Assembly: GCA_002298165.1 (NCBI GenBank)
Contig: DBMI01000041.1
Location: 51 to 64,050, forward strand
Direction of reading: 5' to 3'
DNA from: Desulfarculales bacterium UBA702
GTDB lineage: Bacteria; Desulfobacterota; Syntrophobacteria; Syntrophobacterales; Syntrophobacteraceae
DNA: 64,000 bases
The position numbers and the translations under genes were made by a program. How positions within the stretch are numbered: position 1 is the first letter of the stretch; each line of letters begins with the position of its first letter. This document shows positions 11,492 through 36,249 of the stretch, piece after piece. A model generated the notes under the pieces. That model saw only the letters and a list, made by a program, of their open reading frames with translations. It was not told where the DNA came from and made no database searches.

Positions 11492-11555
11492 GATTATTCC
11501 CAGGGAATGACATGAGGTGGACCGCCACCCTGAAACATTCTGGCGAAATCACCAA

Positions 11556-14720: not shown

Positions 14721-14866
14721 CGGGTTATTGAGCAACGACAAGAGCCAGGCGTGCAGATATCGCAATGTTACCTGCCCTGGCTCTCATCGAAGGTTGAATC
14801 TCCGATATTAGTTCGGATTAAGAGAGCGATTTTGTGGATATGAACTTCAGACCCTGGCGGTTTAAG

Positions 14867-16848: not shown

Positions 16849-16862
16849 CGGATCACGCAGAC

Positions 16863-16897
16863 AAAAAAGGGGCCACGGTACATTTTACCGCAACCCC
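16863..16897 (-). terminator. copy of the tRNA-Arg terminator hairpin (may also stop the convergent kinase gene)
   Basis: The 12-bp stem is fully paired only on the minus strand (three G:U pairs) and is followed by a T-run. On the plus strand the same positions are C:A mismatches. Confidence 0.55.
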
Positions 16898-16906
16898 TTT
16901 GGTTTC

Positions 16907-16975
16907 TCTGGTTGCCCCGGCGCGACTCTAATTCACGGCACCAAGATTAGGAATATGCAACCCCGAGCTTCACAA
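16907..16975 (-). pseudogene. decayed partial copy of tRNA-Arg(CCT)
   Basis: The 3' acceptor strand and an 18-nt block (16937..16954) are identical to the tRNA at 35610..35683. The T-loop is non-canonical, and the 5' half and acceptor pairing are lost. Confidence 0.6.
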
Positions 16976-17272
16976 ACTCCTCAATTTGTCGTAAGTTACG
17001 GGAATTACTCAACTTGGAGTTTCCACTTTCCACATTTTAGCTGATTTTCTACGCTTTGGCAGATTTTGGAAAAATTCCTCACACGGTTCCCACACAGCCG
17101 ATGCGCTCTGCTCCTTGGGGTATACTTTCGCCAACTCCGAAGACGACACAATGTGGCTAAGCTCCCAGGAGCCTTGAAGATTTCTGGTTGGTACTCGCGG
17201 ACACTTGCCGAGTGTAGCATTCCATGTGTGCAGCAATAGATTACGCTCATCGGCGAGGCTAGTTGGAAATCT

Positions 17273-17312
17273 ATGCGCAAGCACAAGATATCATGCGCAA
17301 GCACAAGATGCC
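17273..17312. repeat. perfect 17-nt direct repeat at 20-bp spacing
   Basis: atgcgcaagcacaagat at 17273..17289 and again at 17293..17309. Confidence 0.85.
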
Positions 17313-17373
17313 GAGGTTCTTTGGGAAACCGACATCCCACACCCGACACCCGACCAACCGAAGAGCTGCGTGC

Positions 17374-17790
17374 TCACCGTTTCAGGATTCCGGCGAGGAG
17401 TTTCGTGGCTGAAGATGCACAGTCCATGTCCTGTTCAACGCTTCCACCGCTTACTCCAATCCCACCGATTATTGTCCCGTCCGCTTTCAGGGGAAATCCA
17501 CCCCCGAAAATGACAATACGACCGCCGACAGCGTTATGTATCCCAAACAGGGGTTGAGATGGTTGGGCCAGAGATGTCAATTCATGGGTCGGCATCTGCA
17601 AAGCGACTGCGGTGTAAGCTTTGTTTAATGAGATGTCGATGCTCACCAGGAGAGCGTTATCCATTTTCTGTTGGGCAACCAGATTTCCGCCTGCATCCAC
17701 AACAGCAATTATCATGGGAACGCCGATCTCGTCCGCCTTGGCGCGTGCGGTCTCAATCAGTTTCAGGGCCAAACCCAGATTCATTTGCAT
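17374..17790 (-). CDS. GlcG/HbpS-like DUF336 protein (PduO C-terminal-domain family), copy 2
   Basis: GVPMIIAVVDAGGNLV, SIDISLNKAYTA, GGGFPL..G.IIGGIGVSGGSVEQD. Confidence 0.8.
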   Translation of the reverse strand: MQMNLGLALKLIETARAKADEIGVPMIIAVVDAGGNLVAQQKMDNALLVSIDISLNKAYTAVALQMPTHELTSLAQPSQPLFGIHNAVGGRIVIFGGGFPLKADGTIIGGIGVSGGSVEQDMDCASSATKLLAGILKR

Positions 17791-17848
17791 TGTTTTCTCC
17801 TAAATGAGTGGTTCTCGACCTACCGCGTTTCCATCGGGCACATAGACC

Positions 17849-19243
17849 CTAAATTATCCTGAAAGCATCGACCAGTGTGCAGCGGCGGGCACGGGTAAAA
17901 GATCTTGCAGAGGTCAACCCTTCGCCCGTTGGTCCCGCAATCGTGAAAGCGGTATGCCCTTCTCCGCCAAGGCCGATTCCCGCGTAAGATGGGCCATTCT
18001 TTACGAATATGGTCGTTTCAACTTCTCGGGCGAACCTGGTCATATGTTCGATATGGTTTGAGTGAATGATAGCGGTGTGGCGATTTCCCTGTTCCACCTC
18101 CACTCCCAGCGAAATAGCTTCCGAAACGTTTGCGACGCGAACGATCGGAAGAATCGGCATCATCTGTTCGAGCCAAACCAGAGGATGTGTTCTAGGGGCT
18201 TCGAATATGGCAAGCCGGTATTGCTCTCCAATCGACAGGCCTATCTCTTTCAGGATCACCTGCACATTCTTTCCAATAAAAGCACCATTAATCTTTCGAT
18301 CGGATGTAACAACGATCCCGGTTATCTTCTCTACCTGTTCCGGGGTGAGGAGGTAGGCTTTGCCGGTTTCCTGCATGAACTTTATGAGAGCATTGGCGAC
18401 CGAGTCGACCACGATTACTTCTTTCTCGCTCGTGCAGAAGATGTTGTTATTAACACTCGCGCCGTCGATGATGCAGGAGGCGGCCCTGCGAATATTCGCG
18501 GTCTCATCCACTACGACCGGAGGATTACCGGCCCCGGCGCCTATTGCTTTTTTGCCGGATCGCAACACTGCTTGCACCACCGGCCTTCCTCCAGTTGCGA
18601 CCAGCATATCCACCTTCGGGTGAGCCATGAGTTCCCTGGCGGTTTCCAGGGTGGGTCTCGCGACCCCCCCGATCAACCCCGGCGGCCCTCCGGCTCGCAC
18701 TATGGCATCGTGCATTGTAGTAATGGTTTGGACACTGGTTCGGCCGGCATTCGGGTGAGCGTTGAATACAACGGAATTGCCTCCCGATATCATGCAAATG
18801 GAATTATGGATGAGCGTCCCGGTGGGGTTTGTGATAGGAGTCAGCGATCCGATAACTCCTCGCGGGGCATGTTCGACAAGCGTCAAACCATGGTCGCCGC
18901 TGTATGAGCGAGGTTCTATATCCTCGGGTCCGGTTGACTTCGTTGCACAAAGAATGTTTTCGCGGATTTTATCCTCGTAGCGTCCAAGCCCGGTTTCTTC
19001 AATTGCCAGTGCCGCGAGCCTTTCATTTCCATCCAGAGCAGCTTTCCGGATTGCTGCAATGATCTCCTTGCGACGGTCCAGGGAGAGCTTTTTCAATCGA
19101 TTCTGAGCCACCACCGCATTTTCTACAGCCTCATCGATTGTTTCGACGATTCCGGAATTGTTTCCCGAAAGCTCTCTTTCTTCCACCAACTCGATCAATA
19201 CTTTTTTAACCACTGCGGAGATGCTATCCAGATTGGTGTCCAT
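17849..19243 (-). CDS. pduP: CoA-acylating (propion)aldehyde dehydrogenase
   Basis: EutE/PduP-type ALDH with catalytic-Cys context NNNIFCTSEKEVIVV. The N-terminal amphipathic helix SISAVVKKVLIELV looks like an encapsulation peptide. Confidence 0.88.
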   Translation of the reverse strand: MDTNLDSISAVVKKVLIELVEERELSGNNSGIVETIDEAVENAVVAQNRLKKLSLDRRKEIIAAIRKAALDGNERLAALAIEETGLGRYEDKIRENILCATKSTGPEDIEPRSYSGDHGLTLVEHAPRGVIGSLTPITNPTGTLIHNSICMISGGNSVVFNAHPNAGRTSVQTITTMHDAIVRAGGPPGLIGGVARPTLETARELMAHPKVDMLVATGGRPVVQAVLRSGKKAIGAGAGNPPVVVDETANIRRAASCIIDGASVNNNIFCTSEKEVIVVDSVANALIKFMQETGKAYLLTPEQVEKITGIVVTSDRKINGAFIGKNVQVILKEIGLSIGEQYRLAIFEAPRTHPLVWLEQMMPILPIVRVANVSEAISLGVEVEQGNRHTAIIHSNHIEHMTRFAREVETTIFVKNGPSYAGIGLGGEGHTAFTIAGPTGEGLTSARSFTRARRCTLVDAFRII

Positions 19244-19262
19244 CGAAATATCTCCTCAAAAA

Positions 19263-19844
19263 CTAATGTCTATTATGATCCTGCAGGGCCAGGATGATTG
19301 AACCAGTCAGCAATGTTGACAATTCATACGGCAACCGGACACTTTGAACAGCTTCCCTCAGATTATTGTCCAGAGCTGAAAGAGCCTCATAGTGGCGACC
19401 CATGGGGAGCAATGCCCGAACCTTCGCGGCCAAAACCACCATCTCGTCGAAGCTTCTCACAACAGCATTTGCCACGCACTCGTCCTCTTCCACCGTTCCG
19501 CCGCTGATTCCGATCCCTCCCAGTACACGCCCATCCATACAAAGGGGAAGACCTCCGCCGAACAGTATGATCTTGCCGTTGTGAGTGTGCTCGATTCCAT
19601 AAAGGGGTCCGCCCGGCATCGCCAATTTTCCCAGTTCGCCGGTGGGCATGCGCAGAGCGGCAGCAGTATAAGCCTTGGAGATGGCAATTTCTGAGCTGGC
19701 TGGGAGTGTGCGATCCATCCTGGTGAAAAACTGAAGGTTTCCCGAGTGGTCCGCCAAGGCTATTGCCATCGGTACGCCCAACCCTGCGGCCTCGGCTTCA
19801 GCAATTGATCCTAAAAGCGAGTTGATTTCACAAGGTATTGTCAT
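19263..19844 (-). CDS. GlcG/HbpS-like DUF336 protein with ~60-aa C-terminal extension, copy 1
   Basis: GVPMAIALADHSGNL, SEIAISKAYTAA, GGGLPL..GRVLGGIGISGGTVEED. Start set at MTIPCE, giving a 17-nt overlap with pduO; the ORF could start at 19895. Confidence 0.75.
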   Translation of the reverse strand: MTIPCEINSLLGSIAEAEAAGLGVPMAIALADHSGNLQFFTRMDRTLPASSEIAISKAYTAAALRMPTGELGKLAMPGGPLYGIEHTHNGKIILFGGGLPLCMDGRVLGGIGISGGTVEEDECVANAVVRSFDEMVVLAAKVRALLPMGRHYEALSALDNNLREAVQSVRLPYELSTLLTGSIILALQDHNRH

Positions 19845-20436
19845 AAGCTGTTCTTCCGGATCTGGTTTTTCCGGGCGCAAGCTGAACAAGGACATCCTCT
19901 ATTCCGGCATAAACGGCAGTCGTCCAGGCCATTACAAAAAGCAAATCACTGAGCCTGTTGAAGTAAGGGATCAGGTCCCGATAGCTGTTGTTTTTTCGGT
20001 TCAGCCGCACCAGAAGGCGCTCGACCCGCCTGCACACCGATCTTGCGACATGAAGCGCGGCGCTGTCCGGTGAAGCGCCGGGGATAACGAAGGACTTGGA
20101 AAGGCCAAATGATTCGGTAAGCATGTCCAATTTGGCTTCCAGGGCCGTTATGTCTGATTTGTTCAAACGCCGTTTCAGGCTCGAAAGGGTGGGCGGAGTC
20201 GACGCCAATTCTGCTCCGGCCACAAAGAGGTCTTTCTGAATGGAAAAGATTATCGATCGCAAATCCTCCTGAGTCACCAGGGCGCGCGCCATTCCAAGGC
20301 TCGACTGCAGTTCATCGAGCGCCCCGTAGGTATCGACCCGAAGGTCGTCCTTCTCGACCGTTTCTCCGCTGAGGAGCCTGGTCCGACCCTGATCGCCAAA
20401 ACGGGTGTAAATCTTACTTTTCGCGTTTTCCATCAT
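19828..20436 (-). CDS. pduO: PduO-type ATP:cob(I)alamin adenosyltransferase (ATR domain only)
   Basis: KIYTRFGDQGRT..L, DDLRVDTYGALDELQSSLG, NRLSDLLFV. Confidence 0.88.
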   Translation of the reverse strand: MMENAKSKIYTRFGDQGRTRLLSGETVEKDDLRVDTYGALDELQSSLGMARALVTQEDLRSIIFSIQKDLFVAGAELASTPPTLSSLKRRLNKSDITALEAKLDMLTESFGLSKSFVIPGASPDSAALHVARSVCRRVERLLVRLNRKNNSYRDLIPYFNRLSDLLFVMAWTTAVYAGIEDVLVQLAPGKTRSGRTAYDNTL

Positions 20437-20471
20437 AATGTCTCACGTCCAATGGAGCGTCTGATCCGGAA

Positions 20472-20738
20472 TTAGCAGTTTATATCGTCTATAATCCCCA
20501 CTATCGTGGCATCCACCGGACATTCATTGTCGTCCAGACCCTGGCGTGCCCCGCTCCCCTGCACCACGAAAACACGCTCACCAACCCCGGCACCAACAGC
20601 ATCCACGGCAACAAACGGATCTCCCTTTGGCTCAATCCCCCTGTGGTCCAGAGGCTGGATGATCTGGATTTTACTTCCCAGCAGGCGCTCATGTTTGCGC
20701 GTGGCAACCAGAGTTCCGATGACTTTGGCAATAAGCAT
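20472..20738 (-). CDS. pduN: BMC-P pentameric vertex protein (EutN/PduN/CcmL family)
   Basis: 88 aa. MLIAKVIGTLVATRKHERLLGSKIQIIQPLD and the DAVGAG...VFVVQGS pattern. Confidence 0.88.
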   Translation of the reverse strand: MLIAKVIGTLVATRKHERLLGSKIQIIQPLDHRGIEPKGDPFVAVDAVGAGVGERVFVVQGSGARQGLDDNECPVDATIVGIIDDINC

Positions 20739-20767
20739 TGTCTGCCTCCTGTTTTGGACCCGCGACC

Positions 20768-21565
20768 CTAAGCCTTCATCAACTTGACGCCAAGTCTTCC
20801 GGCCAGGTCGCGTGCAAGGGGAGTCACGAGCCCGGCAGGTCCAAGATTTAAATTCGCCTTCTTCTTGTGAGCACTAAGTACATCTCCTGAAGTAGCGATC
20901 TTTCCCGAAACGGTAATCGCTTGACGGGGCAACGGCATGGGTTCCCTTGGGATTCGCCCGCGCGCTTCATTCCGGATCAATGAGTGTGCTGTTTCCGCGA
21001 GTGCACCGACGCCGGTCAGGGTGCACCCGAGTTCTTCCAGTTTTTTGAGGCGCTGGTGCATCAGTTCATTGAGCACGCTGTTTCCCTTATTGAAGCCCAG
21101 AGCCTTGCGGCCATCCCCGTAAGGGTCCGCTCCTTCTTTTGCCAATATGGTAGGCTTTCCGAAAAGGAGGGAATGCAGAAGGATATTGCTCACCAGATCG
21201 TCAGCAATGAGCAAAGAGAGTTTGGTTGCCGTATTGAGACTCAACAAAGGGACAGCCACAACTTCTGCCGCTTTTACTGAAGAAATCCATTTCTCGGGCG
21301 ATAAAAGACAAAGGTTCGGAAATCCGCTCAATTCCTCCCGGACCATTTCGGCAAAGAGGTGCCCGGCTGACCTGGAAAAAACCAGCTCGATTTTGTATCC
21401 ATCGAGGAGGAGAGATTTGACCTGCCGGATGCTTTCGACCAGTCCGACGGTTGCGCCGGTAAAGACGACTATTACGCTGCCCTTGGGCGCGTTATCGTTC
21501 ATGCGCGCGAGCAATCTGCGGATTACTTCCTCGACGATCAGTTGGAATTGTTCTTCCGTTATCAC
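20768..21565 (-). CDS. PduM-like microcompartment protein, long form with flavoprotein-like central domain
   Basis: The N-terminus EEQFQLIVEEVIRRLL and C-terminus LVTPLARDLAGRLGVKL match both ends of Salmonella PduM as I recall it. The middle resembles an HFCD flavoprotein fold (VVAVPLLSLNTATKLSLLIADDLVSN). Confidence 0.65.
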   Translation of the reverse strand: MITEEQFQLIVEEVIRRLLARMNDNAPKGSVIVVFTGATVGLVESIRQVKSLLLDGYKIELVFSRSAGHLFAEMVREELSGFPNLCLLSPEKWISSVKAAEVVAVPLLSLNTATKLSLLIADDLVSNILLHSLLFGKPTILAKEGADPYGDGRKALGFNKGNSVLNELMHQRLKKLEELGCTLTGVGALAETAHSLIRNEARGRIPREPMPLPRQAITVSGKIATSGDVLSAHKKKANLNLGPAGLVTPLARDLAGRLGVKLMKA

Positions 21566-22428
21566 GAGGTCCCGCTCCCTGTTAACCTTTCACTAGTCCC
21601 CATGGCAACATCACGACAATTTAAGGCTATCCCCAGAGGAGTTACCAGCAACGGCCGGACCGGTATTTCGACTTTGAGCCCAATTTCCGATTCCATTACC
21701 TGCTTTATCCCGGGAAAACTGCTTGTGCCTCCAACCAGGTAGATGGTATCCACCCGGTGACGCATAAGATGGCTCTTTACGATGGCGGCCATCTTTTCGA
21801 AAACGGGTCTTATGATGGGGAATATCTCCGGTTGGCGCGCGGGATCGGTCTTGATTTTTTCGGCTTCCGCAGTATCAATTTTGAACCGGCCCGCGATTAC
21901 CAGATCCGCATGAATCCCGCCCGTGGCTTCATCCGCGGTGTACACAACCGCACCGCCACGGATGATGCTGATGCCTGTCGTACCGCCACCGATATCTACA
22001 ACGGCCCCGTCGTTTATTCCCAGCACCACCGATGCCGCGGTAGGTTCCTCGATGAGTCCGGCAACCTCGAGATCGGCCGCATCGAGTACATTCGCAAAGA
22101 TCCTCGCATTCGCACGCCCGGTTCCTGGCGGATAAGCCGCCGCAGCCGTCCATATCTCGAAACCGGCCTCTCTCAGTGCGTTCACCTGCCGACGCAACGT
22201 TGAAACGGCCTGAACATAATCAAGAACGAGCCCATCCCTGATTGCCGAATGGCTGCGGGTAATCACACCGGCTACGGGAGCCCTTTTTGCGTCGACAACT
22301 GCCGTTACCGTGTAGGCCGTCCCGAGATCGACCCCGGCATATAAGGGCTCATCGCGCTCGATGACTTTTTCCAACGCAAGAGAAGCCTCAAATTCCAGCA
22401 GCAGTTTATTTGCTGATTTCGGTATCAT
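21562..22428 (-). CDS. eutJ: EutJ-like actin/Hsp70-fold ATPase
   Basis: VDLGTAYTV, DIGGGTTGISI, VYLVGGTSSFPGI. 4-nt overlap with the next gene. Confidence 0.85.
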   Translation of the reverse strand: MIPKSANKLLLEFEASLALEKVIERDEPLYAGVDLGTAYTVTAVVDAKRAPVAGVITRSHSAIRDGLVLDYVQAVSTLRRQVNALREAGFEIWTAAAAYPPGTGRANARIFANVLDAADLEVAGLIEEPTAASVVLGINDGAVVDIGGGTTGISIIRGGAVVYTADEATGGIHADLVIAGRFKIDTAEAEKIKTDPARQPEIFPIIRPVFEKMAAIVKSHLMRHRVDTIYLVGGTSSFPGIKQVMESEIGLKVEIPVRPLLVTPLGIALNCRDVAMGTSERLTGSGTS

Positions 22429-22437
22429 GGGCCTGCC

Positions 22438-23052
22438 TCATTCCTTGCCGGAAATCCTCAATACGGCCGTTTCAGCAGCATCTTTGGCGCGGGCGACATC
22501 AGATTCCTTGCCCCCGATATAAAGTCTCCCAACCGCTCCAAACGCCCGGCAGTCCACCAGCGTTATCTGAGAGTTTTTTTCTGCTTCGTTGGCTGCAAGC
22601 ATGATATAGCCGGCGGGAACGACTTCCAGAATGTACATATCCTGCCCGGGCAACACCATCGAACACAGCCTCGATACGTTCACCATCTGAACGTGGTAGT
22701 CGTTCATCTTGTGGATTATCTGGGAGTTCAGTATCTTAGGTTTAAGGCGGTCGTTCTGGACAACTCCAAGGGATTTCAGCGCGGCCTCGCCGGCATGCTT
22801 TACTTCCGCCTGAGCCTTCGAATGAAATTCCAGGACACCAAAATGCCGCTCAACCACCAGGAGACCGGGACGTACATTGGCGGCCTTGAGGGCTGCATCC
22901 GCGACCTGATTGATAAGGACTCCGGGGGCGATTTCCACAAGGATGGAAGCCATGCCGACAACGGGCAGGTATCCGCGCGCATTAGCTCCCATGTAGGCGG
23001 TGAACTGTGGTTGCATTCGATCGATATAAACAAAAGCACGGAGTTCGAGCAT
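22438..23052 (-). CDS. divergent tandem BMC-domain shell protein (BMC-T-like)
   Basis: Two halves each align by eye to the PduA core (ILVEIAPG..DAALKAANV; ILEVVPAG..NEAEKNSQI..GAVGRLYIGG). Each half has an extra ~30-aa leader. Confidence 0.6.
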   Translation of the reverse strand: MLELRAFVYIDRMQPQFTAYMGANARGYLPVVGMASILVEIAPGVLINQVADAALKAANVRPGLLVVERHFGVLEFHSKAQAEVKHAGEAALKSLGVVQNDRLKPKILNSQIIHKMNDYHVQMVNVSRLCSMVLPGQDMYILEVVPAGYIMLAANEAEKNSQITLVDCRAFGAVGRLYIGGKESDVARAKDAAETAVLRISGKE

Positions 23053-23077
23053 CAATGATCCTTTCGGTCTCCATCAG

Positions 23078-23593
23078 TTATTTTTCCGGTTTTTTCCTGC
23101 CCTTAGCCGATTTGAAAGACTTGGGTCCCCGGGTTTCCGGGACCTTTGGTGTCTTTGACCTGGTCGAACCGGTATTTGTATGTTCTGCAGGCCCGTCCTG
23201 CTCCATGACTGATTCAGCAATAGCATTAGGGCCGCTGACAATCGTGGGAACAGGCCGGTCTGAGGCCGTGGACAGGTCTTTCGTCCTTGCGGGAGCATAC
23301 TCTTTCCAGGCAGTATCCGGCGAAGCGGTGCCATTCGCGGCCAATTGCCCGTGAGGGCGTGGAATCACATGGACCGAGACGACTCGGCCAACTTTTCGCG
23401 CCGCCGCTGACCCTGCGGTGACCGCGGCCTTGACAGCCGCCACATCCCCCGAGAATTTCACGGTAACCAGGCCCATTCCCACAAAATGGTATCCGATAAA
23501 AACAACCCGGCTGGTTTTGCATGCTGTGTCAACTGCCTCCACCGCCGCCGTATAACCCTGGGTTTCTATCAGTCCGAGGCTTTCACGCTGCAT
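23078..23593 (-). CDS. pduK: BMC-H shell protein with long C-terminal tail (PduK-like)
   Basis: [24 protein letters not shown]...[18 protein letters not shown]...VHVIPRPH, then ~80 aa of low-complexity, Lys-rich tail. Confidence 0.8.
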
Positions 23594-23602
23594 TGGTCAT
23601 CC

Positions 23603-23965
23603 TTATTTGCCGTGCTTTTCGTCGATAACAAGCGGCTGTCCTTTTGCCAAACGGCCCGCATTTGTCCCCAACCGGCGAAGCCGCGATGGCTCAAAAATTT
23701 CGCCGGAAAGCCGAAACAAGGGCTGTCCCAAAGGCAAATCCCGGTGATGAAGAACTATTTCCTCTGCATTCTTTATGGCAATTCCGACGTTTAGCGCTGA
23801 ATTGCGGGAAGCCTCCTTGGCCAAGTCTGTCGCGCTTTCGCACCGAATAACCTCCCTGAGTTCGAAAAGGACGCCCTCTTCTTCAACGCCCCACAAAAGA
23901 GGCTCTACACTGCTGGTCTGAACCGATTGCGTCCGCAATATCAAAATGACTGGTTTGGCGCTCAC
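23603..23965 (-). CDS. pduH: diol dehydratase reactivase small subunit
   Basis: 120 aa immediately after, and overlapping by 4 nt with, the large reactivase subunit. DdrB/PduH-like size and position. Confidence 0.75.
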   Translation of the reverse strand: MSAKPVILILRTQSVQTSSVEPLLWGVEEEGVLFELREVIRCESATDLAKEASRNSALNVGIAIKNAEEIVLHHRDLPLGQPLFRLSGEIFEPSRLRRLGTNAGRLAKGQPLVIDEKHGK

Positions 23966-25794: not shown

Positions 25795-25889
25795 GCCGGA
25801 CTCTTCCGTTTATTGGCGCCGGTTTAGGCAGCCGAAAACGCCAGTGTTGAACAAAACCCGGGCACCCAGCCACAGTTTCTTGAACTCTG

Positions 25890-26453: not shown

Positions 26454-26506
26454 AGCGCGTCTCTCCTGACAAAATGGTTCCGGAATTAAGAAGCCACTGA
26501 CCGACT

Positions 26507-27151
26507 CTACAGTCGGACCGCAACCTCTTCCGGCGGTTTATCGGGATTCAGGTACTGGACCTCTTTATTGTAGAGCAAAGCCGCCAGGCCCTGATAACGG
26601 GGTCTCGCCATCGGATCATTACGGACCGGAACCGGCCTCGGGCTGTCCCCCTTTGCATACTTGGCGGCGTTTCTTCCCATGGCGCGGAAAGTTGCCAGAT
26701 CCAGCAGAGGGGATTGTGAAAAAAGCTCGAGGTTTTGCAGGGGTTTAAGATCCTTCTGATGTATGACGGCGGTTCCCCTGGACTGCACGCCGATTCCGAT
26801 TCCGGAACCGCTGAGTTTGGCCGCATCATGGGACATGAAAGCAACATCGACCGTACGGTTTACCTTGATAATGCGTGCCTTCAGCCCTTCTTCCTCGATT
26901 CCGGCCAGGATTTCCCTTAAGACCTGCTGATGGGGGATGCCGATTATCGTACTGGTCATCGCGGTGCCAAACGCGGGCGGTATGGCTATTACGACTTCAT
27001 TCTTATCCACACCCTGCTTCGCCGGCCCTATCAGTTTGAATTCCACGGGCGCGGAAGCTTTACCGGCAGAGCTGCCCAAACCTCCATTGCCGGCCAGGTC
27101 CCGCAGCACCTCAAGGATGACCTCTCTTACTATGTCTTCAGTGATTTTCAT
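26507..27151 (-). CDS. pduD: B12-dependent diol/glycerol dehydratase medium subunit
   Basis: Aligns to recalled PduD (EVVIAIPPAFG, ILREILAGIEEEGLKARI, SGSGIGIGVQSRGT). The N-terminal helix DIVREVILEVLRDL is present. Confidence 0.9.
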   Translation of the reverse strand: MKITEDIVREVILEVLRDLAGNGGLGSSAGKASAPVEFKLIGPAKQGVDKNEVVIAIPPAFGTAMTSTIIGIPHQQVLREILAGIEEEGLKARIIKVNRTVDVAFMSHDAAKLSGSGIGIGVQSRGTAVIHQKDLKPLQNLELFSQSPLLDLATFRAMGRNAAKYAKGDSPRPVPVRNDPMARPRYQGLAALLYNKEVQYLNPDKPPEEVAVRL

Positions 27152-27176
27152 CTGTCTTGCCTCCTTGGGTGGCCTC

Positions 27177-28844
27177 CTAAATGTCTGCTGGGCTTATGGC
27201 CTGGGGAATATCTTTCAGTATCTCCCATCGCGCGCCTTCGAGGCGATATCCCGTACCCGGTCCTTTGTAGTCGTTAGGATCATTTACCGCGCTCAAGACA
27301 TCGAAGTTACCTTCGAGAATGGCAGATGTATGTAGATAGTCGCCGGTGATTTTTTGTCGCAGTATTCCGAGAACTGCCTCGGCGACATCCGTGAAACCAT
27401 TCTTAGCCAGTGCTCGCACAACATCCAGACCGTTGCCGCCCCGTTTCATGAAAGCGTCGATCGAGCTGAGGTCCTCGGTCGTGTTCCGGTCGGGAACATC
27501 TCTTGACCCATGAGCATAGGTCACCGCTTCGACCTCCTCATCGGTCACCGACGGCAGGCCCAAGTCCCTGAAGACCGCCTGAATGGCTCTGGCACCCTTG
27601 TTGCGAATCATAATTACGTCCTCCTCCTTGACCGGGATGCAACCCCCGTCGATCTGGAGGTCGCGCTGGAGGACGAGGTAGTCGTCATAATCATCGCAGT
27701 CGTGGGTCGAGCCCGCAAACATGTTGTCATAATTGGGGACACTACTGTAGCCGGAGAATATGAGGTCGGTGCCGGGAAGAAACTGCATGAGCATTCGGGC
27801 GGCATTGCGAATTGGCGAGTGGGTGAAGGTCTGGTCGTTTCCCGAGGCAACCTCCAGGTCCATCAGCACGGTCGCAACGTTCTCGCCAAGGACAGCGCGA
27901 ATACCCGAGGGCACCGCACCAGGAACTCCAATGCAGCTTATGGAGCCGTTCTGAAGACCCTGAACGCCTGCTCCCTTCGCCACCATTACACAACGGATTT
28001 CGAGATAAAGCATCGACTTGCCTTCAGCGTACCCCATCTGCACTTCCGAACCCGTACCGGACGTGAAGCGCATCTTGAGTCCACGCGATGCATAAGCGGA
28101 AGCCAGAAAAGCTTTGGACCACGGCGTATCATCGCCATCCACGAAGACCTGATCGGTCCCGTAAACGGAAACCGTTTCAGCATATGCAGTAAGTCCGCGC
28201 ATGCCCATACTCAGTTCCAGAGCTTCCTCGACGGCGCATTGGGTAATTACGCCGGGCCGGCCCGTCTGGGAACCAACGAGAATGGACAGAGCATTCATCG
28301 GAGCATATCGTCCTACACCGACGGTGGTTTCCAACTCGCTGAATCCCCTGAAAGCGGCTTCGGCGGCATCAGCGGCCAGGAGTACCGGGTGATCCTTCAA
28401 GTTTGTCACATGAGCCTGGTTGGACGGCGTGCGACGCGGCCGCATTTTCTGCATGGCCATCATCATCTCCACGACGTTCAGCTTCTTGATTACGTCCAGT
28501 ATTTTGGCAGGGGTCATGCCAACGGAGAGCCGGACAATTTCAGAACGCGGAACATTGATGTCCACAAGCATCCGGGCAAATTGAAGAGAATCCAGCGCCA
28601 TTGCTTCCTGGGCAACCGAGGTGTCAATGCAGTGATCGGCGATCCATGTATCGATCATGTCGAAGTCGGGACGTTTTTTTCCGTCCAGTTCCGCGACTTT
28701 GCCGTCCTGTATACGGATTCCCGGCTTGGGGTCATTGGGGTTTTCCATGGCAACCAGGCCGACCTCAACCCATTCTTTGATGAAGCCGTCCTTGTTGACG
28801 GGACGTTCTGCCAACACTTGAAATCTTTTCTGTCTTTTACTCAT
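27177..28844 (-). CDS. pduC: B12-dependent diol/glycerol dehydratase large subunit
   Basis: 555 aa. MSKRQKRFQVLAERPVNKDGFIKEW... and full-length PduC/DhaB1-like sequence. Confidence 0.92.
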   Translation of the reverse strand: MSKRQKRFQVLAERPVNKDGFIKEWVEVGLVAMENPNDPKPGIRIQDGKVAELDGKKRPDFDMIDTWIADHCIDTSVAQEAMALDSLQFARMLVDINVPRSEIVRLSVGMTPAKILDVIKKLNVVEMMMAMQKMRPRRTPSNQAHVTNLKDHPVLLAADAAEAAFRGFSELETTVGVGRYAPMNALSILVGSQTGRPGVITQCAVEEALELSMGMRGLTAYAETVSVYGTDQVFVDGDDTPWSKAFLASAYASRGLKMRFTSGTGSEVQMGYAEGKSMLYLEIRCVMVAKGAGVQGLQNGSISCIGVPGAVPSGIRAVLGENVATVLMDLEVASGNDQTFTHSPIRNAARMLMQFLPGTDLIFSGYSSVPNYDNMFAGSTHDCDDYDDYLVLQRDLQIDGGCIPVKEEDVIMIRNKGARAIQAVFRDLGLPSVTDEEVEAVTYAHGSRDVPDRNTTEDLSSIDAFMKRGGNGLDVVRALAKNGFTDVAEAVLGILRQKITGDYLHTSAILEGNFDVLSAVNDPNDYKGPGTGYRLEGARWEILKDIPQAISPADI

Positions 28845-28860
28845 TGGCAGCCTTCCTTGG

Positions 28861-29667
28861 TCAGATATAGGGTTGAGTTACAGGCTTGGCTTCCTGGCCC
28901 CATGCGGACAACAGCTTCACCCCTACTTCCCGCCCGGCTATTACCGCCTGCCGCACAGCACCCGAATCGCCCGACACCCAGATCATCACTTCATTGGTGA
29001 GGCTTGTCCCCTTCGAAGGCGACGCGTATCCCACCACTTCCACATCGGCAGCCTTGACGGCCGTATCGATCATCAGAACGCCGATAACGGCAGGCGCGCC
29101 CAGAATGAGTCCAAAAGCCTTCCCTTCGGGGGTGTTGAATACCTGATTGAGGCACCGGCTAGCGCGGGCCGTGTATTGAAGTTCAAGGTGGCCCTGATCG
29201 TTCGCGTAGACGTCTCCAAAATACTTTGGCAGTACCTCGAGGGTGACTTCGACGGCGCGTCGGGCATCCGATACATCTTCTGCTCCGAAGATGATCAGAT
29301 TTCCGTGTCCGGCCCCGCCTTTTGTGTCCCTGGGCATCTGAACCGAAAGTATGTCAGTGTTTGTCGCCTTCACGGCTTCATCTGCCGCCATTATATGGGG
29401 CCCCGCTCCGACACGGCCTCCAATGACACCGATCGAACGGTATTTCCCGTCTATCCCCATTAAATTGTGAATGCAGGGGTCAAGATTGGCTATGACGATG
29501 CCCTGGGTTTCCCCCATGCCGATGCCTACAAATTCCGTCACCTGTACCAGATCATCACGGCAGGCCGCCGCCGGGCCATTTTGCCTGGCCTCCTTCGTGC
29601 CTTCTGGAGCAGACCCCACCCTTTTCATTACTTCTTTCATGACTCTGTCGATCAGTTCCTCTTGCAT
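28861..29667 (-). CDS. pduB: BMC-T tandem-domain shell protein
   Basis: 268 aa. N-terminal helix ELIDRVMKEVMKRV, then VTEFVGIGMGETQGIVIANLDP. PduB-like, and sits in the pduA-pduB-pduC position. Confidence 0.85.
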   Translation of the reverse strand: MQEELIDRVMKEVMKRVGSAPEGTKEARQNGPAAACRDDLVQVTEFVGIGMGETQGIVIANLDPCIHNLMGIDGKYRSIGVIGGRVGAGPHIMAADEAVKATNTDILSVQMPRDTKGGAGHGNLIIFGAEDVSDARRAVEVTLEVLPKYFGDVYANDQGHLELQYTARASRCLNQVFNTPEGKAFGLILGAPAVIGVLMIDTAVKAADVEVVGYASPSKGTSLTNEVMIWVSGDSGAVRQAVIAGREVGVKLLSAWGQEAKPVTQPYI

Positions 29668-29694
29668 CGGATATCACCTCCCGCTCGCATCCTG

Positions 29695-30006
29695 CTAAGG
29701 ATGAGCTTTTGTGATCGATTCACCGGATTCCGTCAGTTGGGGCAGAATCATTTCGACTTCCTGGTGAGGCCTTGGGATCACATGGATCGAGATCACCTCG
29801 CCGACTTTCTGGGCAGCGGCGGCGCCTGCATCAGTGGCGGCCTTTACCGCGCCCACGTCTCCCCTCACCATTGTGGTTACAAGGCCGGCCCCTATTTTCA
29901 CATAACCAACCAATTGGACATTGGCTGCCTTGACCATGGCATCAGAAGCTTCGATCATCGCAACCAGGCCTCGTGTTTCTATCAATCCCAACGCTTCCTT
30001 AGTCAT
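29695..30006 (-). CDS. pduA: BMC-H hexameric shell protein
   Basis: [56 protein letters not shown]. Confidence 0.92.
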
Positions 30007-30083
30007 CAGAGTTCTCCTGTTTTCGATTGTTCACTATGAGGAAAATGTTGCCCGGGGGCGGCTTTTCAAGCCCCCGGGACCTG

Positions 30084-30584
30084 TTAGGCATTTTTGACGG
30101 CGGCTTCTTCTTCGGATTTTGCCTTGAACCATCCCGGGGCTGTTGCGGAGAGAATGCCGGCGCAGTTGCCGATCACCATGCAAACTGCCGTATTGATCAG
30201 AGTGTCGGTGATGAGGCCCTGATGAGCACCGAGATTGCCGAAAAAGACCGCTGCTCCGACAAATTGGGCAGGTATAGCGGAGAGCATCTTGATATTCCCC
30301 TCGATAGTCATGACGAAGCAAAACACTCCTATCCAGGCGGACAAAAGGAGCATGCTGCCTCCACCCAATTCCTTCCATGACCAGAAGAAAAGCGCACCCT
30401 GTATCATACCGGCGAGATTGGCGGCAATGGATTTGCTCAGCGCATCCTTATTGCCTCCGGCGAAGTAGAAGCTGGCCCATGCGGCGTATCCAACCCAAGC
30501 GACCAGCCATGCCACCTGGGTAGTGATAAAGAACCACAATCCGCAGAGCACACCGATACTGATGGATATGGGCATGAGAGCCAT
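30084..30584 (-). CDS. small polytopic inner-membrane protein, DUF1097 (YcdZ-like)
   Basis: 166 aa, about 5 TM helices. Resembles my recollection of E. coli YcdZ (W.G..A...YFA.G). Directly abuts the gldA stop codon. Confidence 0.5.
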   Translation of the reverse strand: MALMPISISIGVLCGLWFFITTQVAWLVAWVGYAAWASFYFAGGNKDALSKSIAANLAGMIQGALFFWSWKELGGGSMLLLSAWIGVFCFVMTIEGNIKMLSAIPAQFVGAAVFFGNLGAHQGLITDTLINTAVCMVIGNCAGILSATAPGWFKAKSEEEAAVKNA

Positions 30585-31691
30585 TTACAATCCTTTCCTG
30601 TAATCTTTGGCGAGTGCATCAGCCGTCCAGATTGCGGCTTCAACCTTGCTGGCCGTCACCTCAAACCAGGTGGCATGAATAGTTTCACCCGGGGCGGTTG
30701 TCGCTTCAGCCACCTTGCGTATTTCCTCGGGGGTGGGGTTATGAATTCCCAGATCATCGAGGCAGACTGGCAGTCCGACCGAGATGCAGAAATCCAGCAC
30801 CTCTTCAATTTCATCCGAGGAACGTCCCTCCATGATCAATTGGGTAAGGGTACCGAACGCCACTTTCTGGCCGTGGAGTTTATGATGAGAGGCTTCCAGA
30901 ACCGTAAATCCGTTGTGCACCGAATGGGCGCCCGCAAGACCGCCGCTTTCGAACCCGAGGCCGCTTAACAGCGTATTGGCCTCCACAATGGCTTCCACGG
31001 CTGGTGTGACCATGTTTTTCTCGACCGCCAGCTTCGCCTGTACGCCATATTCCAGCAAAGTCTCGTAGCAAAGGCGGGCAAGCGAGTGGGCAGAGCGGAA
31101 TGGAGGGCATCCGCCGGTGAGCACATTCGGCTTACAGCTCTTGAAGCAGGTGTCGGCCTCCCAGTAGGTAGCCAGGGCGTCCCCCATGCCCGAAACCAGG
31201 TATTCAGCAGGAGCCTTGGCAACGATACCAGTGTCTACCAGCACGCAATCGGGATTTTTTGGCAGAACGAGATAGCGCTCGAAGACCCCGTCATCGGTAT
31301 AGACAACCGAAAGAGCGGAACACGGGGCGTCCGTGGCGGCGATTGTGGGGATAACCACCACGGGGATTTTCATGTAGTGGGCTACTGCTTTTCCGGTATC
31401 GATCACCTTGCCGCCACCGGATGCTATAACAACGTCACACCCCTCTTTTTGCGCGATCTCCACCAGACGGTTAATCTCATTGGTCGAGCACTCACCATTG
31501 AAGAGTTCTTTGCGGCATGAAACACCCTTTTCAGCTAGACTTGACTCGATGGCCTGGCCGCATACGGACATTGCTCTTTTTCCGGCCGTGAAAAGGGCCT
31601 TGGTTCCAAGCCTTGCCGCATTAACGCCTATTTCGCTGATTGCGCCCTCTCCCTGAACGTAACGACTTGGTGCGATCAATATCCTGCTCAT
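30585..31691 (-). CDS. gldA: glycerol dehydrogenase (Fe-ADH superfamily, GldA type)
   Basis: Near full-length match to recalled E. coli GldA: PTIAATDAPCSALSVVYTD, GDALATYWEA, GFESGGLAGAHSVHNG, HGQKVAFGTLTQL. Confidence 0.9.
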   Translation of the reverse strand: MSRILIAPSRYVQGEGAISEIGVNAARLGTKALFTAGKRAMSVCGQAIESSLAEKGVSCRKELFNGECSTNEINRLVEIAQKEGCDVVIASGGGKVIDTGKAVAHYMKIPVVVIPTIAATDAPCSALSVVYTDDGVFERYLVLPKNPDCVLVDTGIVAKAPAEYLVSGMGDALATYWEADTCFKSCKPNVLTGGCPPFRSAHSLARLCYETLLEYGVQAKLAVEKNMVTPAVEAIVEANTLLSGLGFESGGLAGAHSVHNGFTVLEASHHKLHGQKVAFGTLTQLIMEGRSSDEIEEVLDFCISVGLPVCLDDLGIHNPTPEEIRKVAEATTAPGETIHATWFEVTASKVEAAIWTADALAKDYRKGL

Positions 31692-32096
31692 CCTGTTTTT
31701 CTCCTCTTTGTTAAAGTTGTGGGTTGGGGATAAACCCGGCTGACAGGTAAATCCTCCCGGCCAGGCACCTCACGGCGGCCCGGCCAGAAATGTTTGGGGC
31801 AAAATAGAGGCGGCACAATAGATCCTTTTCAGGTCAGTCAACCATGGCGGAGTCACAGTTGATGCATATCGAACCAAAAGTGCCGAAACTCTTGTGAAAA
31901 GAGGGAACAGAAACTGGTTGCAGCGGGAAATTTGGTCAGGGTGCGCTTGGTGCCTTCACTCTTTCGGGACTCCGGAAAGCGTCTTATGGATTTGGTGAGG
32001 ATATTAAACCGGAGAGGGGAGAAAAAAGAAATCCCCCTACAGAGGGGAAAGGCTCCCTCAAAAGGGGGATTAAAGGAGTAGATCCGTCAATGGAGT

Positions 32097-32729
32097 TTAA
32101 GAAAGAAGCTGCTTCTTTGCGGCAATCGAAGTGGCTTCTACGCGGTTTTTTACTTGCAGTTTCTGATATATGCTCTTGATATGGCTTTTTACCGTTTCGA
32201 TGCTGATAAAGAGCAGGTCGGATATTTCCTTATTGCTTCGGCCCTCCATGATCGCCTTTAGTATGTCTTTTTCCCTGTGGGTAAGCGGTTCGGGCGGTTC
32301 CGCGCAATCGTCCGTTTTGTTCTTCAGCGCGAGGTTTGCCAGGAAAGGGGAGACGATCTCCTTTCCTTCGAAGACAGAACGAATAATCTTCGCGAGTTGT
32401 GAGACATCCACGCATTTGAGGAGGTAACCATTCGCCCCTGCGGCCATTGCTTCAGTGATGTATTTTTCGTCGTCATGAGTCGATAACATAAGAATCTTCA
32501 TGTCGGGGACGGCTTTGCGCAGAATTCGAACAGCCCGAATGCCCGAAATCCCCGGCAAGTCCACATCAATTAATGACAAATCCGGTGGATTGTCCTGGAT
32601 TTTTTCCACTGCGCTGAAACCATCGCTTGCTTCCCCGATGACTTTCAGACCATCTTCCTGATCCAGCACAATTCTCAAGCCGATGCGAAAAAGCGGATGG
32701 TCGTCGACTAGAAAAATGTCCATGAACAT
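32097..32729 (-). CDS. NarL/FixJ-family response regulator (receiver + LuxR HTH)
   Basis: IFLVDDHPLFR, DLSLIDVDLPGISG, and C-terminal LTHREKDILKAIMEGRSNKEISDLLFISIETVKSHI. Confidence 0.9.
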   Translation of the reverse strand: MFMDIFLVDDHPLFRIGLRIVLDQEDGLKVIGEASDGFSAVEKIQDNPPDLSLIDVDLPGISGIRAVRILRKAVPDMKILMLSTHDDEKYITEAMAAGANGYLLKCVDVSQLAKIIRSVFEGKEIVSPFLANLALKNKTDDCAEPPEPLTHREKDILKAIMEGRSNKEISDLLFISIETVKSHIKSIYQKLQVKNRVEATSIAAKKQLLS

Positions 32730-32836
32730 CCTCCCGACAAGTGCACCGGCTTAGCCTTCAGAAATCAGGGTTTGAATGGAAGACTCCCCGAACTGATCAG
32801 CGCCGGATAATTTCAGCGGAGCGGGTACTGCCGGGA

Positions 32837-34531
32837 TCAGCCCGCCCGGCAATTACCGTGCGCGGGCAATGTGAAACAAAACCTGCAGCCGCTCTTACCC
32901 TTTCTGGTCTTTTCCATCACCGGGGATACTATCCAGATCCTGCCGCCATGAGCTTCGACCGCTAACCTGCAGAAGGCAAGCCCCAGACCTGTTCCTTCAC
33001 GGGATGGGACTCCGCCTGCGTTGATGGTAAAGTACTTATCGAAAATGGATGATTGATATGCCTTAGGTATCCCGGTGCCCTCATCTTCAACACTCACGAG
33101 GACTTCATCTTTCCGGTGTCCTTTGCCAGCTTCTCGCGCCGCCCTGGAATTTCCTGCCTGAAGCGCACACACTTCGCCCTGTTTTTCTATCCTGACAATA
33201 ATCCGGCTTTTCTCCGGGCTGTATTTGATGGCATTATCCAGAAGATTTACGCAAGTTCGGCGAATCCGGCTCTCGTCGATATTGACGTTGATAGGCTCAC
33301 GCTGTGCAACGAGTTCTAAAGTAATGCCCTTTTCCTTCGCAAGCAGTTCGAATTGACTCAGGCCTTCCTCCACGACCCGTTGAATCGCAACTCGCGAGCG
33401 TTGCAGAGCGAACTGTCCATTCTCGCTACGGTAGATGTCCAGTATATCACTCACCATGCCGTATAATTGATGGCAGGTGAAAAGGGCCAGGTCCACGACT
33501 TGTTTCTGATCCAGGCTAACCGACCCGCAAAACCCGTCCGAAATTATCTGAAGTGCCCGCTGCAGCGACAGCACGGGATTTCTCAAGTCATGGGTTATCA
33601 TGCCGATCAGGTCTTCTTTCATCCGCTCGATCTGTTTTTCCTCCGAAATGTCCCTGATAACACCCACGAAGCCAGCACTGGCTTCACGTTTATCATTTAT
33701 GGCGGAAAAGCATACCTGCACCGGAAATGAGGAACCGTCTGCCCTGACGGCGGTCAAATCGGTGCGAACCTTGCCGGGCAAAGCCCTGAATGCACCCTCA
33801 TGATGAGCGGCTTTGTACTGTTCTTCCGCAAAAAGCACATTGATTGGTTTTCCAACTATCTGGTCCGGCTTGTATCCAAACATCGCAGCGCCTGCTTGAT
33901 TAACCATGCCGACCGTATCATCGGCGCTGATGGAAATGATGCAATCCGAAACGCTGTTGACCAGCCTCGAGAGGTAGCGTTGAGATCTCTTTTGGGCCGT
34001 ATACTTCTGAAGAGCCAGTTCGCCGATCGTAACAGTGATCTCCGACATGAGGTTGACAACTTTGAGAAGCTTTTCGCGGCTCATCAACGGGATTTTAGCG
34101 AGTTCCCGCAGATAACCGTCAATGTCTTTGATGCCAATCGATCTGGCTCTCTCGATTGCCTGCTTCTCATCGGTCACGGGATTTTCCAGCACCTGGCCGC
34201 AAAGAACCGTAGCCAGATGATGCCCCTCGATTATCAAGGGAGCTGCACAATCAGTCAGGCCGGAATTCAGGCACTGATAAGTGAAAGGAGCCTGTATGCT
34301 AGCGGATTGCGAGCCTCCATAGTGATCGCTCTCAATACATTTAGCCCTGCCCTTTGCTGTGGCGCGGCAGTAGGTCTGGCAAAATGGCGTGAAATTGCAG
34401 GGCAGGGTAATCGGATGGCCGTCCGGGTAAGTGATAATGGAGGCAACTCCGGCAACTTCAGTGAAAACCTGAAGAATCCGCTCAAGTTTTTCCCTGCTGA
34501 CAAGGTCAAGCAGGTGAATCGGACGCGCCAT
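32837..34531 (-). CDS. soluble sensor histidine kinase with N-terminal PocR domain and a PAS domain
   Basis: PocR-type pattern (ASIITYPDGHPI..NFTPFC..C..SD..YQCLNSGLTDCAAPLIIEGHHLATVLCGQV), then PAS. H-box ITHDLRNP, N-box DNAIKYSP, G-boxes DEGTGIP and GTGLGL. Confidence 0.85.
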   Translation of the reverse strand: MARPIHLLDLVSREKLERILQVFTEVAGVASIITYPDGHPITLPCNFTPFCQTYCRATAKGRAKCIESDHYGGSQSASIQAPFTYQCLNSGLTDCAAPLIIEGHHLATVLCGQVLENPVTDEKQAIERARSIGIKDIDGYLRELAKIPLMSREKLLKVVNLMSEITVTIGELALQKYTAQKRSQRYLSRLVNSVSDCIISISADDTVGMVNQAGAAMFGYKPDQIVGKPINVLFAEEQYKAAHHEGAFRALPGKVRTDLTAVRADGSSFPVQVCFSAINDKREASAGFVGVIRDISEEKQIERMKEDLIGMITHDLRNPVLSLQRALQIISDGFCGSVSLDQKQVVDLALFTCHQLYGMVSDILDIYRSENGQFALQRSRVAIQRVVEEGLSQFELLAKEKGITLELVAQREPINVNIDESRIRRTCVNLLDNAIKYSPEKSRIIVRIEKQGEVCALQAGNSRAAREAGKGHRKDEVLVSVEDEGTGIPKAYQSSIFDKYFTINAGGVPSREGTGLGLAFCRLAVEAHGGRIWIVSPVMEKTRKGKSGCRFCFTLPAHGNCRAG

Positions 34532-35096
34532 AACCCATCCTGTATTCGAGTTGCCCTATCGGTCAGACGGTGTAAAACAGGAACGGCCGGAAAGAGAATG
34601 AATTTGAAACCACCTGCCAGACAGAACCGAAAGTGGGACGAAAGCGTTATGGGCCTGCAAAAATGAAGGGAATAGAAGAGCAGATGCTAATTCGAGCTGA
34701 CCAGCAAATCTGATTTGAGGTACCAAAAGGGTTGAGCCTGGCAGCTATTCAAAATGCGAATTGAAACCAAACCTTATTTTCATTCTGCCCGAACCTGAAT
34801 TGATAGTCAAGTCTTTTGCGAATTTGAACACAAGTTGCTTCGCGCCCGGATAGAGAGCCGGTATCCAGGGTCCGGGATCCGAAGCAGCGTGAAAATGCGA
34901 GAGCCAGGCATGGCGGAGGGCAGTTCCCCAAACCTGGCTCTCGGCTAAATTTATTAGCAGCAAAAGGTCTAACAGACTAATCGGCGATAGAGCGAATTTC
35001 CTAAACAAAAATTTTCCTTGGTTGGCGCTCGACTATTCTGTTGAAGCTAAAATCTACTCTTTCTTGCTTGCTTCTGCAGTTGGCCAGGGGCTGGGC

Positions 35097-35450
35097 TCAT
35101 CCTTTGGAGGGTTTACGTTCACAGTTGGGATCGCGCAGCTTCAAAATAGCGGCTCTCTGGAGTGCCTGAAGTTCTCCTTTTAGCCTTCCCACTTCCGACG
35201 CCATATTGCTTCCCGAAAGACTGGAAACCGGAACACCTAGCAGAATGACTCCGGCAATATCATTTGAGCGGCATTTCCTCTTAGCATCAGAAGCGGAGGA
35301 AAGGGCAGCTACCAACCGCGGCTGTTCTTCGGCTAATTGGTCGCATGTCCAACTTCTGTAATACATTTCGCTGATATAGGAGGGTTTAATGTTCTCTGGA
35401 GACGTAGCACAGCCGGCCAGGCATACGAGAGAGACAAAATCGGTGGGCAC
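35097..35450 (-). CDS. small lipoprotein, unknown function
   Basis: Lipobox LAGCA near the N-terminus. GTG start; 117 aa. Confidence 0.45.
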   Translation of the reverse strand: MPTDFVSLVCLAGCATSPENIKPSYISEMYYRSWTCDQLAEEQPRLVAALSSASDAKRKCRSNDIAGVILLGVPVSSLSGSNMASEVGRLKGELQALQRAAILKLRDPNCERKPSKG

Positions 35451-35558
35451 GAAAAGCCGTGCCCACCCTACATTCCCTGATAATTCACCAGGTTGAGAAC
35501 CGAAGCCAGGTAGATACCATCTTGAGAATCAAGGCGGTATCTACATTCTCACGCATAC

Positions 35559-35594
35559 AAAAAAAGGGGCCACGGTACATTTACCGCAACCCCC
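35559..35594 (-). terminator. rho-independent terminator of tRNA-Arg
   Basis: On the minus strand GGGGTTGCGGTA-loop-TACCGTGGCCCC (12 bp including G:U pairs) followed by TTTTTTT, 15 nt after the tRNA 3' end. Confidence 0.7.
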
Positions 35595-35609
35595 TTTGGT
35601 TTCTCTGGT

Positions 35610-35683
35610 TGCCCCCGACAGGACTCGAACCTGTGGCACCAAGATTAGGAATCTTGTGCTCTATCCACCTGAGCTACGGGGGC
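35610..35683 (-). tRNA. tRNA-Arg (anticodon CCT)
   Basis: Hand-folded cloverleaf: acceptor GCCCCCG/CGGGGGC, D-arm GCTC-AGGTGGATA-GAGC, anticodon arm CAAGA-TTCCTAA-TCTTG, T-arm ACAGG-TTCGAGT-CCTGT. 74 nt. Confidence 0.9.
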
Positions 35684-36184: not shown

Positions 36185-36249
36185 AAAATTGAAGTTATAT
36201 TTCTTTGAAGCGGGATAATCTCCCGCTTGCTTCGTTCGTTTCCGATACG

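Follow-up and report, generated by a model that had tools for sequence, protein, structure and literature searches.

A Pdu-type microcompartment locus between a tRNA-Arg(CCT) gene and a 3′ fragment of it, a candidate remnant of tRNA-site integration in Desulfarculales bacterium UBA702

We analysed a 64,000-nt stretch (hereafter the window) of contig DBMI01000041.1 from Desulfarculales bacterium UBA702, a member of the Syntrophobacteraceae, in which a bacterial microcompartment (BMC) operon and its regulators lie between an intact tRNA-Arg(CCT) gene and a partial copy of that gene. The intact gene was the sole tRNA called by ARAGORN in the window; its CCA is not encoded, and its T-arm reads ACAGG/TTCGAGT/CCTGT. 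A repeat that resembles a pair of attachment (att) sites begins within this gene and recurs at the far end of the locus, and the elements at the two ends are as follows.

35610..35683, minus strand: intact tRNA-Arg(CCT) gene (ARAGORN; Rfam RF00005, 67.4 bits)
35548..35652, minus strand: repeat copy B, attL-like, tRNA nt 31-73 with terminator T1 downstream
35562..35597, minus strand: hairpin of T1, the intrinsic terminator after the tRNA, with a U7 tail
16852..16954, minus strand: repeat copy A, attR-like, with an 18-nt block, a divergent and broken T-arm, an acceptor 3′ strand one G short, and terminator T2
16866..16900, minus strand: hairpin of T2, the intrinsic terminator in copy A, with a U6 tail

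Together, copies A and B form a direct repeat of ~103 nt that comprises tRNA nt 31-73 and an intrinsic terminator, with 93 of 109 columns identical in a global alignment made in tRNA orientation. The 18-nt block ATTCCTAATCTTGGTGCC is identical in the two copies (16937..16954 and 35635..35652) and spans tRNA nt 31-48, from the last base of the 5′ anticodon stem through the anticodon loop and the 3′ stem to the variable loop. It had no other match in the window at up to 3 mismatches, and two matches were reached in 0 of 100 shuffles. The inner edge of the repeat lies at tRNA nt 30/31, on the 5′ side of the anticodon loop, and copy A starts 4 nt past the stop codon of a convergent kinase gene. 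No third copy was found in the 64-kb window, low stringency included.

As a tRNA, copy A was not called by ARAGORN, and Rfam returned nothing at 16.9 kb even at E ≤ 1. The 5′ half of the tRNA is absent, and the T-arm is without the near-universal G53 and C56; copy A is a directly oriented 3′ fragment of a tRNA gene and is not functional. A functional duplication of the tRNA gene would show as a second copy scoring as a tRNA, and only the 35.6-kb copy scored. The first-pass annotation, made by a model from the sequence alone, had described a canonical tRNA-Arg(CCT) and a broken copy in the same orientation, sharing an identical 18-nt block, with similarity stopping at the 5′ edge of the anticodon loop and with flank and terminator differing by a single substitution and three indels in homopolymers. 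All of these points were borne out when both loci were run through ARAGORN and Rfam and the copies were realigned, and the G-run of the acceptor adds a fourth 1-nt indel.

The position of the repeat edge was compared with other occurrences of the same tRNA by scanning metagenomes with the 18-nt core as query. The nine matches comprised four complete tRNA-Arg(CCT) genes, four chance matches and one 3′ fragment, on contig L029 (Ga0124853_1383423, 440-481, minus strand). This fragment has no 5′ half, follows unrelated AT-rich DNA and starts at the same nucleotide as copy A, at the anticodon-loop boundary. Because an independent fragment begins there, we took this boundary to be one used as an att limit, and the L029 fragment itself resembles an att scar, left at this tRNA in another organism. 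Integrases are known to use the edge of the anticodon loop as a sublocation, and direct repeats of 15-221 bp were found in a survey of Klebsiella tDNA islands, 27 of 162 of which were without an integrase (bioRxiv 10.1101/2020.11.02.365908). Since both lie within the range of that survey, a repeat of ~100 nt and a missing integrase are unexceptional. The arrangement thus shows two features expected of an island, insertion at the 3′ side of an intact tRNA and a far-end direct repeat that starts from a recognised sublocation.

The differences between the copies are concentrated in the T-arm, where 9 of 17 positions differ from the intact gene, against 1 of 84 elsewhere (Fisher p = 1e-7). Among the nine changes, seven are transitions of mixed direction, a pattern that resembles the ordinary divergence of homologous sequences and not hypermutation. 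The T-arm of copy A reads GTGAA/TTAGAGT/CGCGC, and its 3′ stem strand CGCGC is the same as in a natural allele, L024 (GCGTG/TTCGAAT/CGCGC). The T-arm of the intact gene was found also in a tRNA-Arg(CCT) on an unrelated 82-kb metagenome contig (L027, 73 of 74 positions identical) and, save for one loop difference (TTCGATT), in the tRNA of L026. Copy A thus joins the 18-nt core, a T-arm of another allele with a few inactivating changes, and an acceptor and terminator near those of the host. Such a composition is that of a mosaic, not of the simply decayed copy that the first-pass annotation had proposed, since the differences pile up in the T-arm and CGCGC fits the L024 allele. Clustering of this kind and the match to L024 are expected if the repeat derives partly from the tRNA of another lineage. 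In assessing a functional donor we relied on these two observations. The apparently compensatory changes in the T-stem were set aside as proof of one; two of the three double-changed pairs still pair, but double transitions do so automatically.

The mosaic fits an exchange 3′ of the T-arm, within a 66-nt block of acceptor and terminator identity, or more than one event at the site. An exchange at that point would let the host keep its own working T-arm and leave the relic of the element in the fragment, and because a host-type T-arm stands in the intact gene and the odd one in the fragment, the exchange most likely lay 3′ of the T-arm; alternatively, the locus underwent more than one event. 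Apart from the T-arm, the repeats show ~99% identity when substitutions are counted, pointing to an event that was fairly recent.

The terminator segment is present twice, at 16863..16918 and 35560..35615, and repeat identity runs ~60 nt past the tRNA into the intergenic terminator. T1 folds at -27.8 kcal/mol (z = -4.2) and T2 at -36.2 kcal/mol (z = -4.7). Both were called as terminators on the minus strand only, and folding of the plus strand was weaker. Both copies are still correctly oriented to work: T1 would end the tRNA transcript, and T2 would end the Pdu operon and close the convergent kinase gene. Beyond copy B lies a further hairpin with 16-nt arms, at 35510..35544 (arms 35510-35525 and 35529-35544).

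The repeat is unlikely to be a misassembly, because the Logan assembly of run SRR5320860, which may share its sample with the Joint Genome Institute (JGI) contig Ga0243509_100186 (3300029327), matched both copies at 100% identity. All same-strain contigs that reach the insertion carry the insert. A 1660-bp Logan contig of DRR012576 breaks inside the tRNA, short of the repeat, and gives no information on the site. We considered contig L013, which ends in the tRNA at 35655, as a strain variant and rejected it; low coverage or graph branching at a tRNA gene explains its end equally well.

The interval between the repeats, ~18.6 kb, holds a regulator pair, the BMC operon and ~1.4 kb of unassignable DNA, and nothing else.

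16955..17373: unassignable spacer of ~420 nt, from copy A to the last operon gene
17374..31691, minus strand: 18-gene operon for a B12-dependent diol/glycerol dehydratase microcompartment (Pfam, NCBIfam)
32097..32729, minus strand: NarL/LuxR-type response regulator (Pfam)
32837..34531, minus strand: PocR-PAS histidine kinase (Pfam)
34532..35547: ~1 kb beside the tRNA-proximal repeat, with no recognisable gene but an open reading frame (ORF; 35097..35450, 89-117 aa) that has a lipobox and no family match

The BMC operon, the pair of PocR kinase and NarL regulator and the lipobox ORF were all as first annotated, apart from the number of operon genes, which is 18 and not 16. In transcription order, the operon encodes a GldA-type glycerol dehydrogenase, DUF1097, a PduA-like protein, PduB, PduCDE, the PduGH reactivase and a BMC-H protein, followed by a CcmP/CsoS1D-like BMC-T protein, an EutJ-like protein, a flavoprotein, EutN/PduN, the PduO adenosyltransferase, an HbpS-like protein, the PduP aldehyde dehydrogenase and a second HbpS-like protein. 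PduB, PduC/D/E, DDR, EutN, the PduO N-terminal domain and the PRK15398 aldehyde dehydrogenase scored above the curated cut-offs of Pfam and NCBIfam. With PduCDE, a reactivase, a shell of BMC-H, BMC-T and BMC-P proteins, an acylating aldehyde dehydrogenase and an adenosyltransferase, the operon is that of a Pdu-type metabolosome; neither PduL nor PduW was recognisable in it. The first gene (30585-31691) encodes a glycerol dehydrogenase of the GldA type (NF006941, 508 bits), not an alcohol dehydrogenase of the PduQ type. Glycerol may be the substrate no less than 1,2-propanediol.

Within the spacer next to copy A, ~320 bp inside from it, ATGCGCAAGCACAAGAT occurs as a perfect 17-nt direct repeat (17273-17289 and 17293-17309, 20-bp spacing). 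Its last 10 nt equal tRNA nt 24-33, across the repeat boundary, on the opposite strand; the chance of such a 10-mer match is roughly 0.1-0.2. This repeat could be a protein-binding site. In the tRNA-proximal spacer (34532..35547), only ~60 nt just upstream of the PocR kinase gene resemble the relative L020. A terminator-like hairpin on the minus strand (35442..35467) overlaps the GTG start of the 117-aa version of the ORF, which therefore probably starts later, at the ATG at 35366.

Outside the repeats, the nearest genes are the following.

15451..16848, plus strand: convergent HisKA/HATPase sensor kinase, outer left flank (Pfam)
35756..36930, minus strand: low-GC zinc-ribbon membrane protein and TetR regulator, outer right flank

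On the right, the TetR gene (36250-36930) is followed downstream by the zinc-ribbon membrane protein and then the tRNA. In four relatives (L014, L015, L017 and L019) its orthologues head an operon for a membrane fusion protein, a resistance-nodulation-division (RND) transporter and an outer membrane protein, which is absent from the window. Since this RND efflux operon is missing here, the right flank is itself rearranged. On the left, the lowest GC content at third codon positions (GC3) of the window was found at 11964..16848, 0.45-0.57 against ~0.60 elsewhere, and by composition this stretch resembles an island more than the Pdu interval does. Encoded in it are a split response-regulator/HATPase pair, a lysylphosphatidylglycerol-synthase-like membrane protein, small ORFs and the kinase. 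Kinase orthologues, sought in GTDB genomes and a 5.8-billion-protein set, are 66-71% identical, share no neighbours and stand in unrelated contexts; TetR orthologues are 56-68% identical, without flank synteny.

Further observations concern the surroundings. A match to the Rfam cspA thermoregulator 5′ untranslated region at 14838-15224 (minus strand) fell below threshold (44 bits against a gathering cut-off of 78, E = 2e-8). The 30-nt GC-rich palindromic element CCCCTCCCTTTGATGGGAGGG... occurs at 11589-11618 and 52134-52163, 40 kb apart and at 93% identity, and may be a dispersed terminator or a repetitive extragenic palindromic (REP)-like element. Close to its copies lies a 33-nt inverted match (11538-11570 and 52269-52301).

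The module is widespread among relatives. Full-length homologues of the PocR kinase are many, and the named ones come from Syntrophobacteraceae, Desulforhabdus, Desulfosoma and Desulfoferrobacter. Their identities run from 76%, 68% and 66% downward, similar to those of the flank proteins (kinase 71%, TetR 68%), and PduC is ~92% identical in L021 and L022 (tblastn). The module is collinear from the PocR kinase onward in four relatives, and the contig of a fifth, L020, ends just past the response regulator. The upstream neighbours differ in all five: a major facilitator superfamily transporter; a tyrosyl-tRNA synthetase and ATP synthase; succinate dehydrogenase; squalene-hopene cyclase; and DUF188 with RluA. 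Within 10 kb of the module, whose far end was beyond reach, no tRNA or tyrosine integrase was found in the five; one has an IS200-type Y1 transposase 8 kb away. These differing neighbourhoods would fit a module that relocates.

The most economical reading, and on balance a probable one, is that the interval is an att-flanked, integrase-less remnant of an integration at tRNA-Arg(CCT), whose content is now the Pdu module. Foreign DNA would have integrated site-specifically into the 3′ half of the tRNA gene, and recombination would have left the intact tRNA at one end and the displaced 3′ fragment with its terminator at the other, so that the two copies would be attL-like and attR-like scars. The recombinase gene would since have been deleted, or would never have been carried in cis, and the module would now be a fixed, integrase-less islet of the type of cis-mobilisable elements (CIMEs). 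The repeat with its exact limits and orientation, the non-functional state of copy A, the genes present and the lack of a recombinase are observed; by inference we add a tyrosine integrase as the maker of the junctions, the Pdu module as the cargo and a related member of the Syntrophobacteraceae as the donor. An origin of the donor in the same family is probable.

Several observations weigh against this reading. The tRNA-proximal spacer is the usual place of an integrase gene, but no integrase, excisionase or transposase domain or remnant was found in the ORFs of the interval or in the other large ORFs scanned in the window. Small ORFs beside both repeat copies held no recombinase remnants at permissive thresholds (E ≤ 5 in the 1-kb tRNA-proximal spacer). 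An integrase gene inside the element, a usual mark of an island, is therefore lacking, as the first-pass annotation had stated for the interval. Among viral contigs and phage genomes, no element matched the T-arm of copy A or the 18-nt core, and plasmid-borne relatives of the PocR kinase were distant matches only, at ≤ 30% identity. Nor is the composition or codon usage atypical. The interval has a GC3 of 0.583 and the flanks one of 0.595 (p = 0.14); in codon usage the interval lies at a distance of 0.257 from them, inside the range of equally long flank blocks (0.24-0.44). The compositional contrast that the first-pass annotation had put forward as a check thus appeared in neither measure, and this part of the outcome goes against an island; a donor from the same family would explain host-like composition. 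The closest homologues of the regulators and operon are collinear Pdu modules in other Syntrophobacteraceae and Desulfobacterota, so that either the module is old or any transfer stayed inside the family. Among the nearest relatives, which are ~70% identical in flank proteins, without flank synteny, and too distant to show one, an empty site was not found. Little weight falls on the differing neighbourhoods of the module, because at this divergence synteny is missing for the flank genes as well. The outer flanks are odd in composition or rearranged, and the acquired DNA may thus exceed the repeats. Finally, near-identical terminators beside a very different T-arm are not what one anticodon-loop crossover with later neutral decay would predict. 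The earlier proposal of an island that has lost its integrase accordingly stands in its direct 3′ fragment, its anticodon-loop edge, the parallel in L029 and the absence of an integrase; the host-like composition, the homologues within the family and the mosaic repeat do not sit well with it.

In one alternative, no integrase acted in this genome, and the DNA entered by RecA-dependent homologous recombination from a close strain, either as the whole structure or as a circle carrying the 100-nt tRNA-terminator segment. The repeats would then be the homology used, and any site-specific event would have occurred earlier, in the donor lineage. Identity that continues ~60 nt beyond the tRNA, exceeding what an att core needs, is in keeping with this route, as are the host-like composition, the closest homologues all from the same family and the absent recombinase. 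Homologous recombination does not explain the exact anticodon-loop edge, seen also in L029, and the T-arm mosaic still requires a foreign tRNA-like donor segment; we consider this route unlikely, although it is the least so of the alternatives. A somewhat smaller probability attaches to a tandem accretion, in which an older element, the low-GC3 stretch with the kinase, integrated first and joined its A-type T-arm and T2 to the working tRNA. The Pdu module would have come next, on a second element related to the first, whose integration into the rebuilt tRNA would have pushed the first tRNA end inward to decay. Copy A would be an inner att site, and both terminators would be element-borne. Near-identical terminators, as related attP modules, and a once-functional T-arm with 2-3 inactivating changes would follow from this scheme; the lowest GC3 of the window does lie directly left of copy A, and the kinase orthologues of relatives do stand in unrelated contexts. 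The scheme nevertheless requires two related elements and two integrase losses; neither segment has an integrase, and even at low stringency the window yields no further copy of the repeat.

We regard as improbable that the Pdu module is native here and its bracketing incidental, with the repeat left by an unrelated, lost element or by local duplication or rearrangement. Host-like composition, the spread of the module in the family and the unassignable DNA just inside the two repeats, ~1.4 kb in all, would suit such a history. Yet att repeats enclose integrated DNA, and native genes inside them require an extra inversion or transposition; the module is near a tRNA in 0 of 5 relatives, and duplication with deletion requires precise breakpoints and leaves the T-arm mosaic unexplained. 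Equally doubtful is the idea that PocR kinase, NarL regulator and diol-dehydratase module form a family-wide mobile cassette without a recombinase, which would borrow an integrase in trans, with a mimic of the tRNA-Arg 3′ end fused to a working terminator as its att and ATGCGCAAGCACAAGAT as a recombinase site. The att terminator may in that case double as the operon stop, and insertion may rebuild the tRNA 3′ end together with its terminator.

If the integration at tRNA-Arg(CCT) is real, the locus provides a dated and physically delimited example of a complete metabolosome installed with its two-component regulator as one unit in a syntrophic Desulfobacterota lineage, would support the view of BMC loci as self-contained transferable modules, and would mark tRNA-Arg(CCT) as an insertion hotspot in the group. 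Its practical value is modest: comparative and synthetic studies can take the repeat limits as the borders of the module, and the mosaic repeat offers a small caution to tools that infer att cores from tRNA fragments.

Compared with known systems, the gene content resembles Pdu/Dha-type loci under PocR regulation in its PduABCDE, PduGH reactivase, PduN, PduO, PduP and PocR sensory domain. It differs from them in having a PocR-PAS histidine kinase with a NarL-type partner instead of an AraC-type PocR, a GldA-type first gene, no recognisable PduL or PduW, and a CcmP/CsoS1D-like BMC-T protein. The structure shares with tyrosine-integrase tRNA islands an intact tRNA at one end, a 3′ direct repeat from the anticodon loop at the other and a metabolic operon as cargo, and its ~100-nt repeat falls within the 15-221 bp of Klebsiella tDNA islands; unlike tyrosine-integrase islands, it has no integrase or excisionase and no compositional contrast, includes ~60 nt of terminator in the repeat and has a mosaic T-arm. 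We regard the mosaic of the repeat and the second terminator, still in the correct orientation, as minor oddities and not as a new mechanism. CIMEs, known from the literature on ICESt elements of Streptococcus thermophilus, are att-flanked remnants of integrative elements without recombination and transfer genes. We know of no cognate integrative element or integrase for this tRNA-Arg(CCT) site, unlike the case of CIMEs. As in CIMEs, the bounds are attL-like and attR-like, recombination and transfer genes are absent and only cargo genes are present, and by analogy mobilisation of the locus would be conceivable, either in trans or through accretion with an element that arrives later. The structure is a fresh instance of a well-known kind, the tRNA-linked, integrase-less islet.

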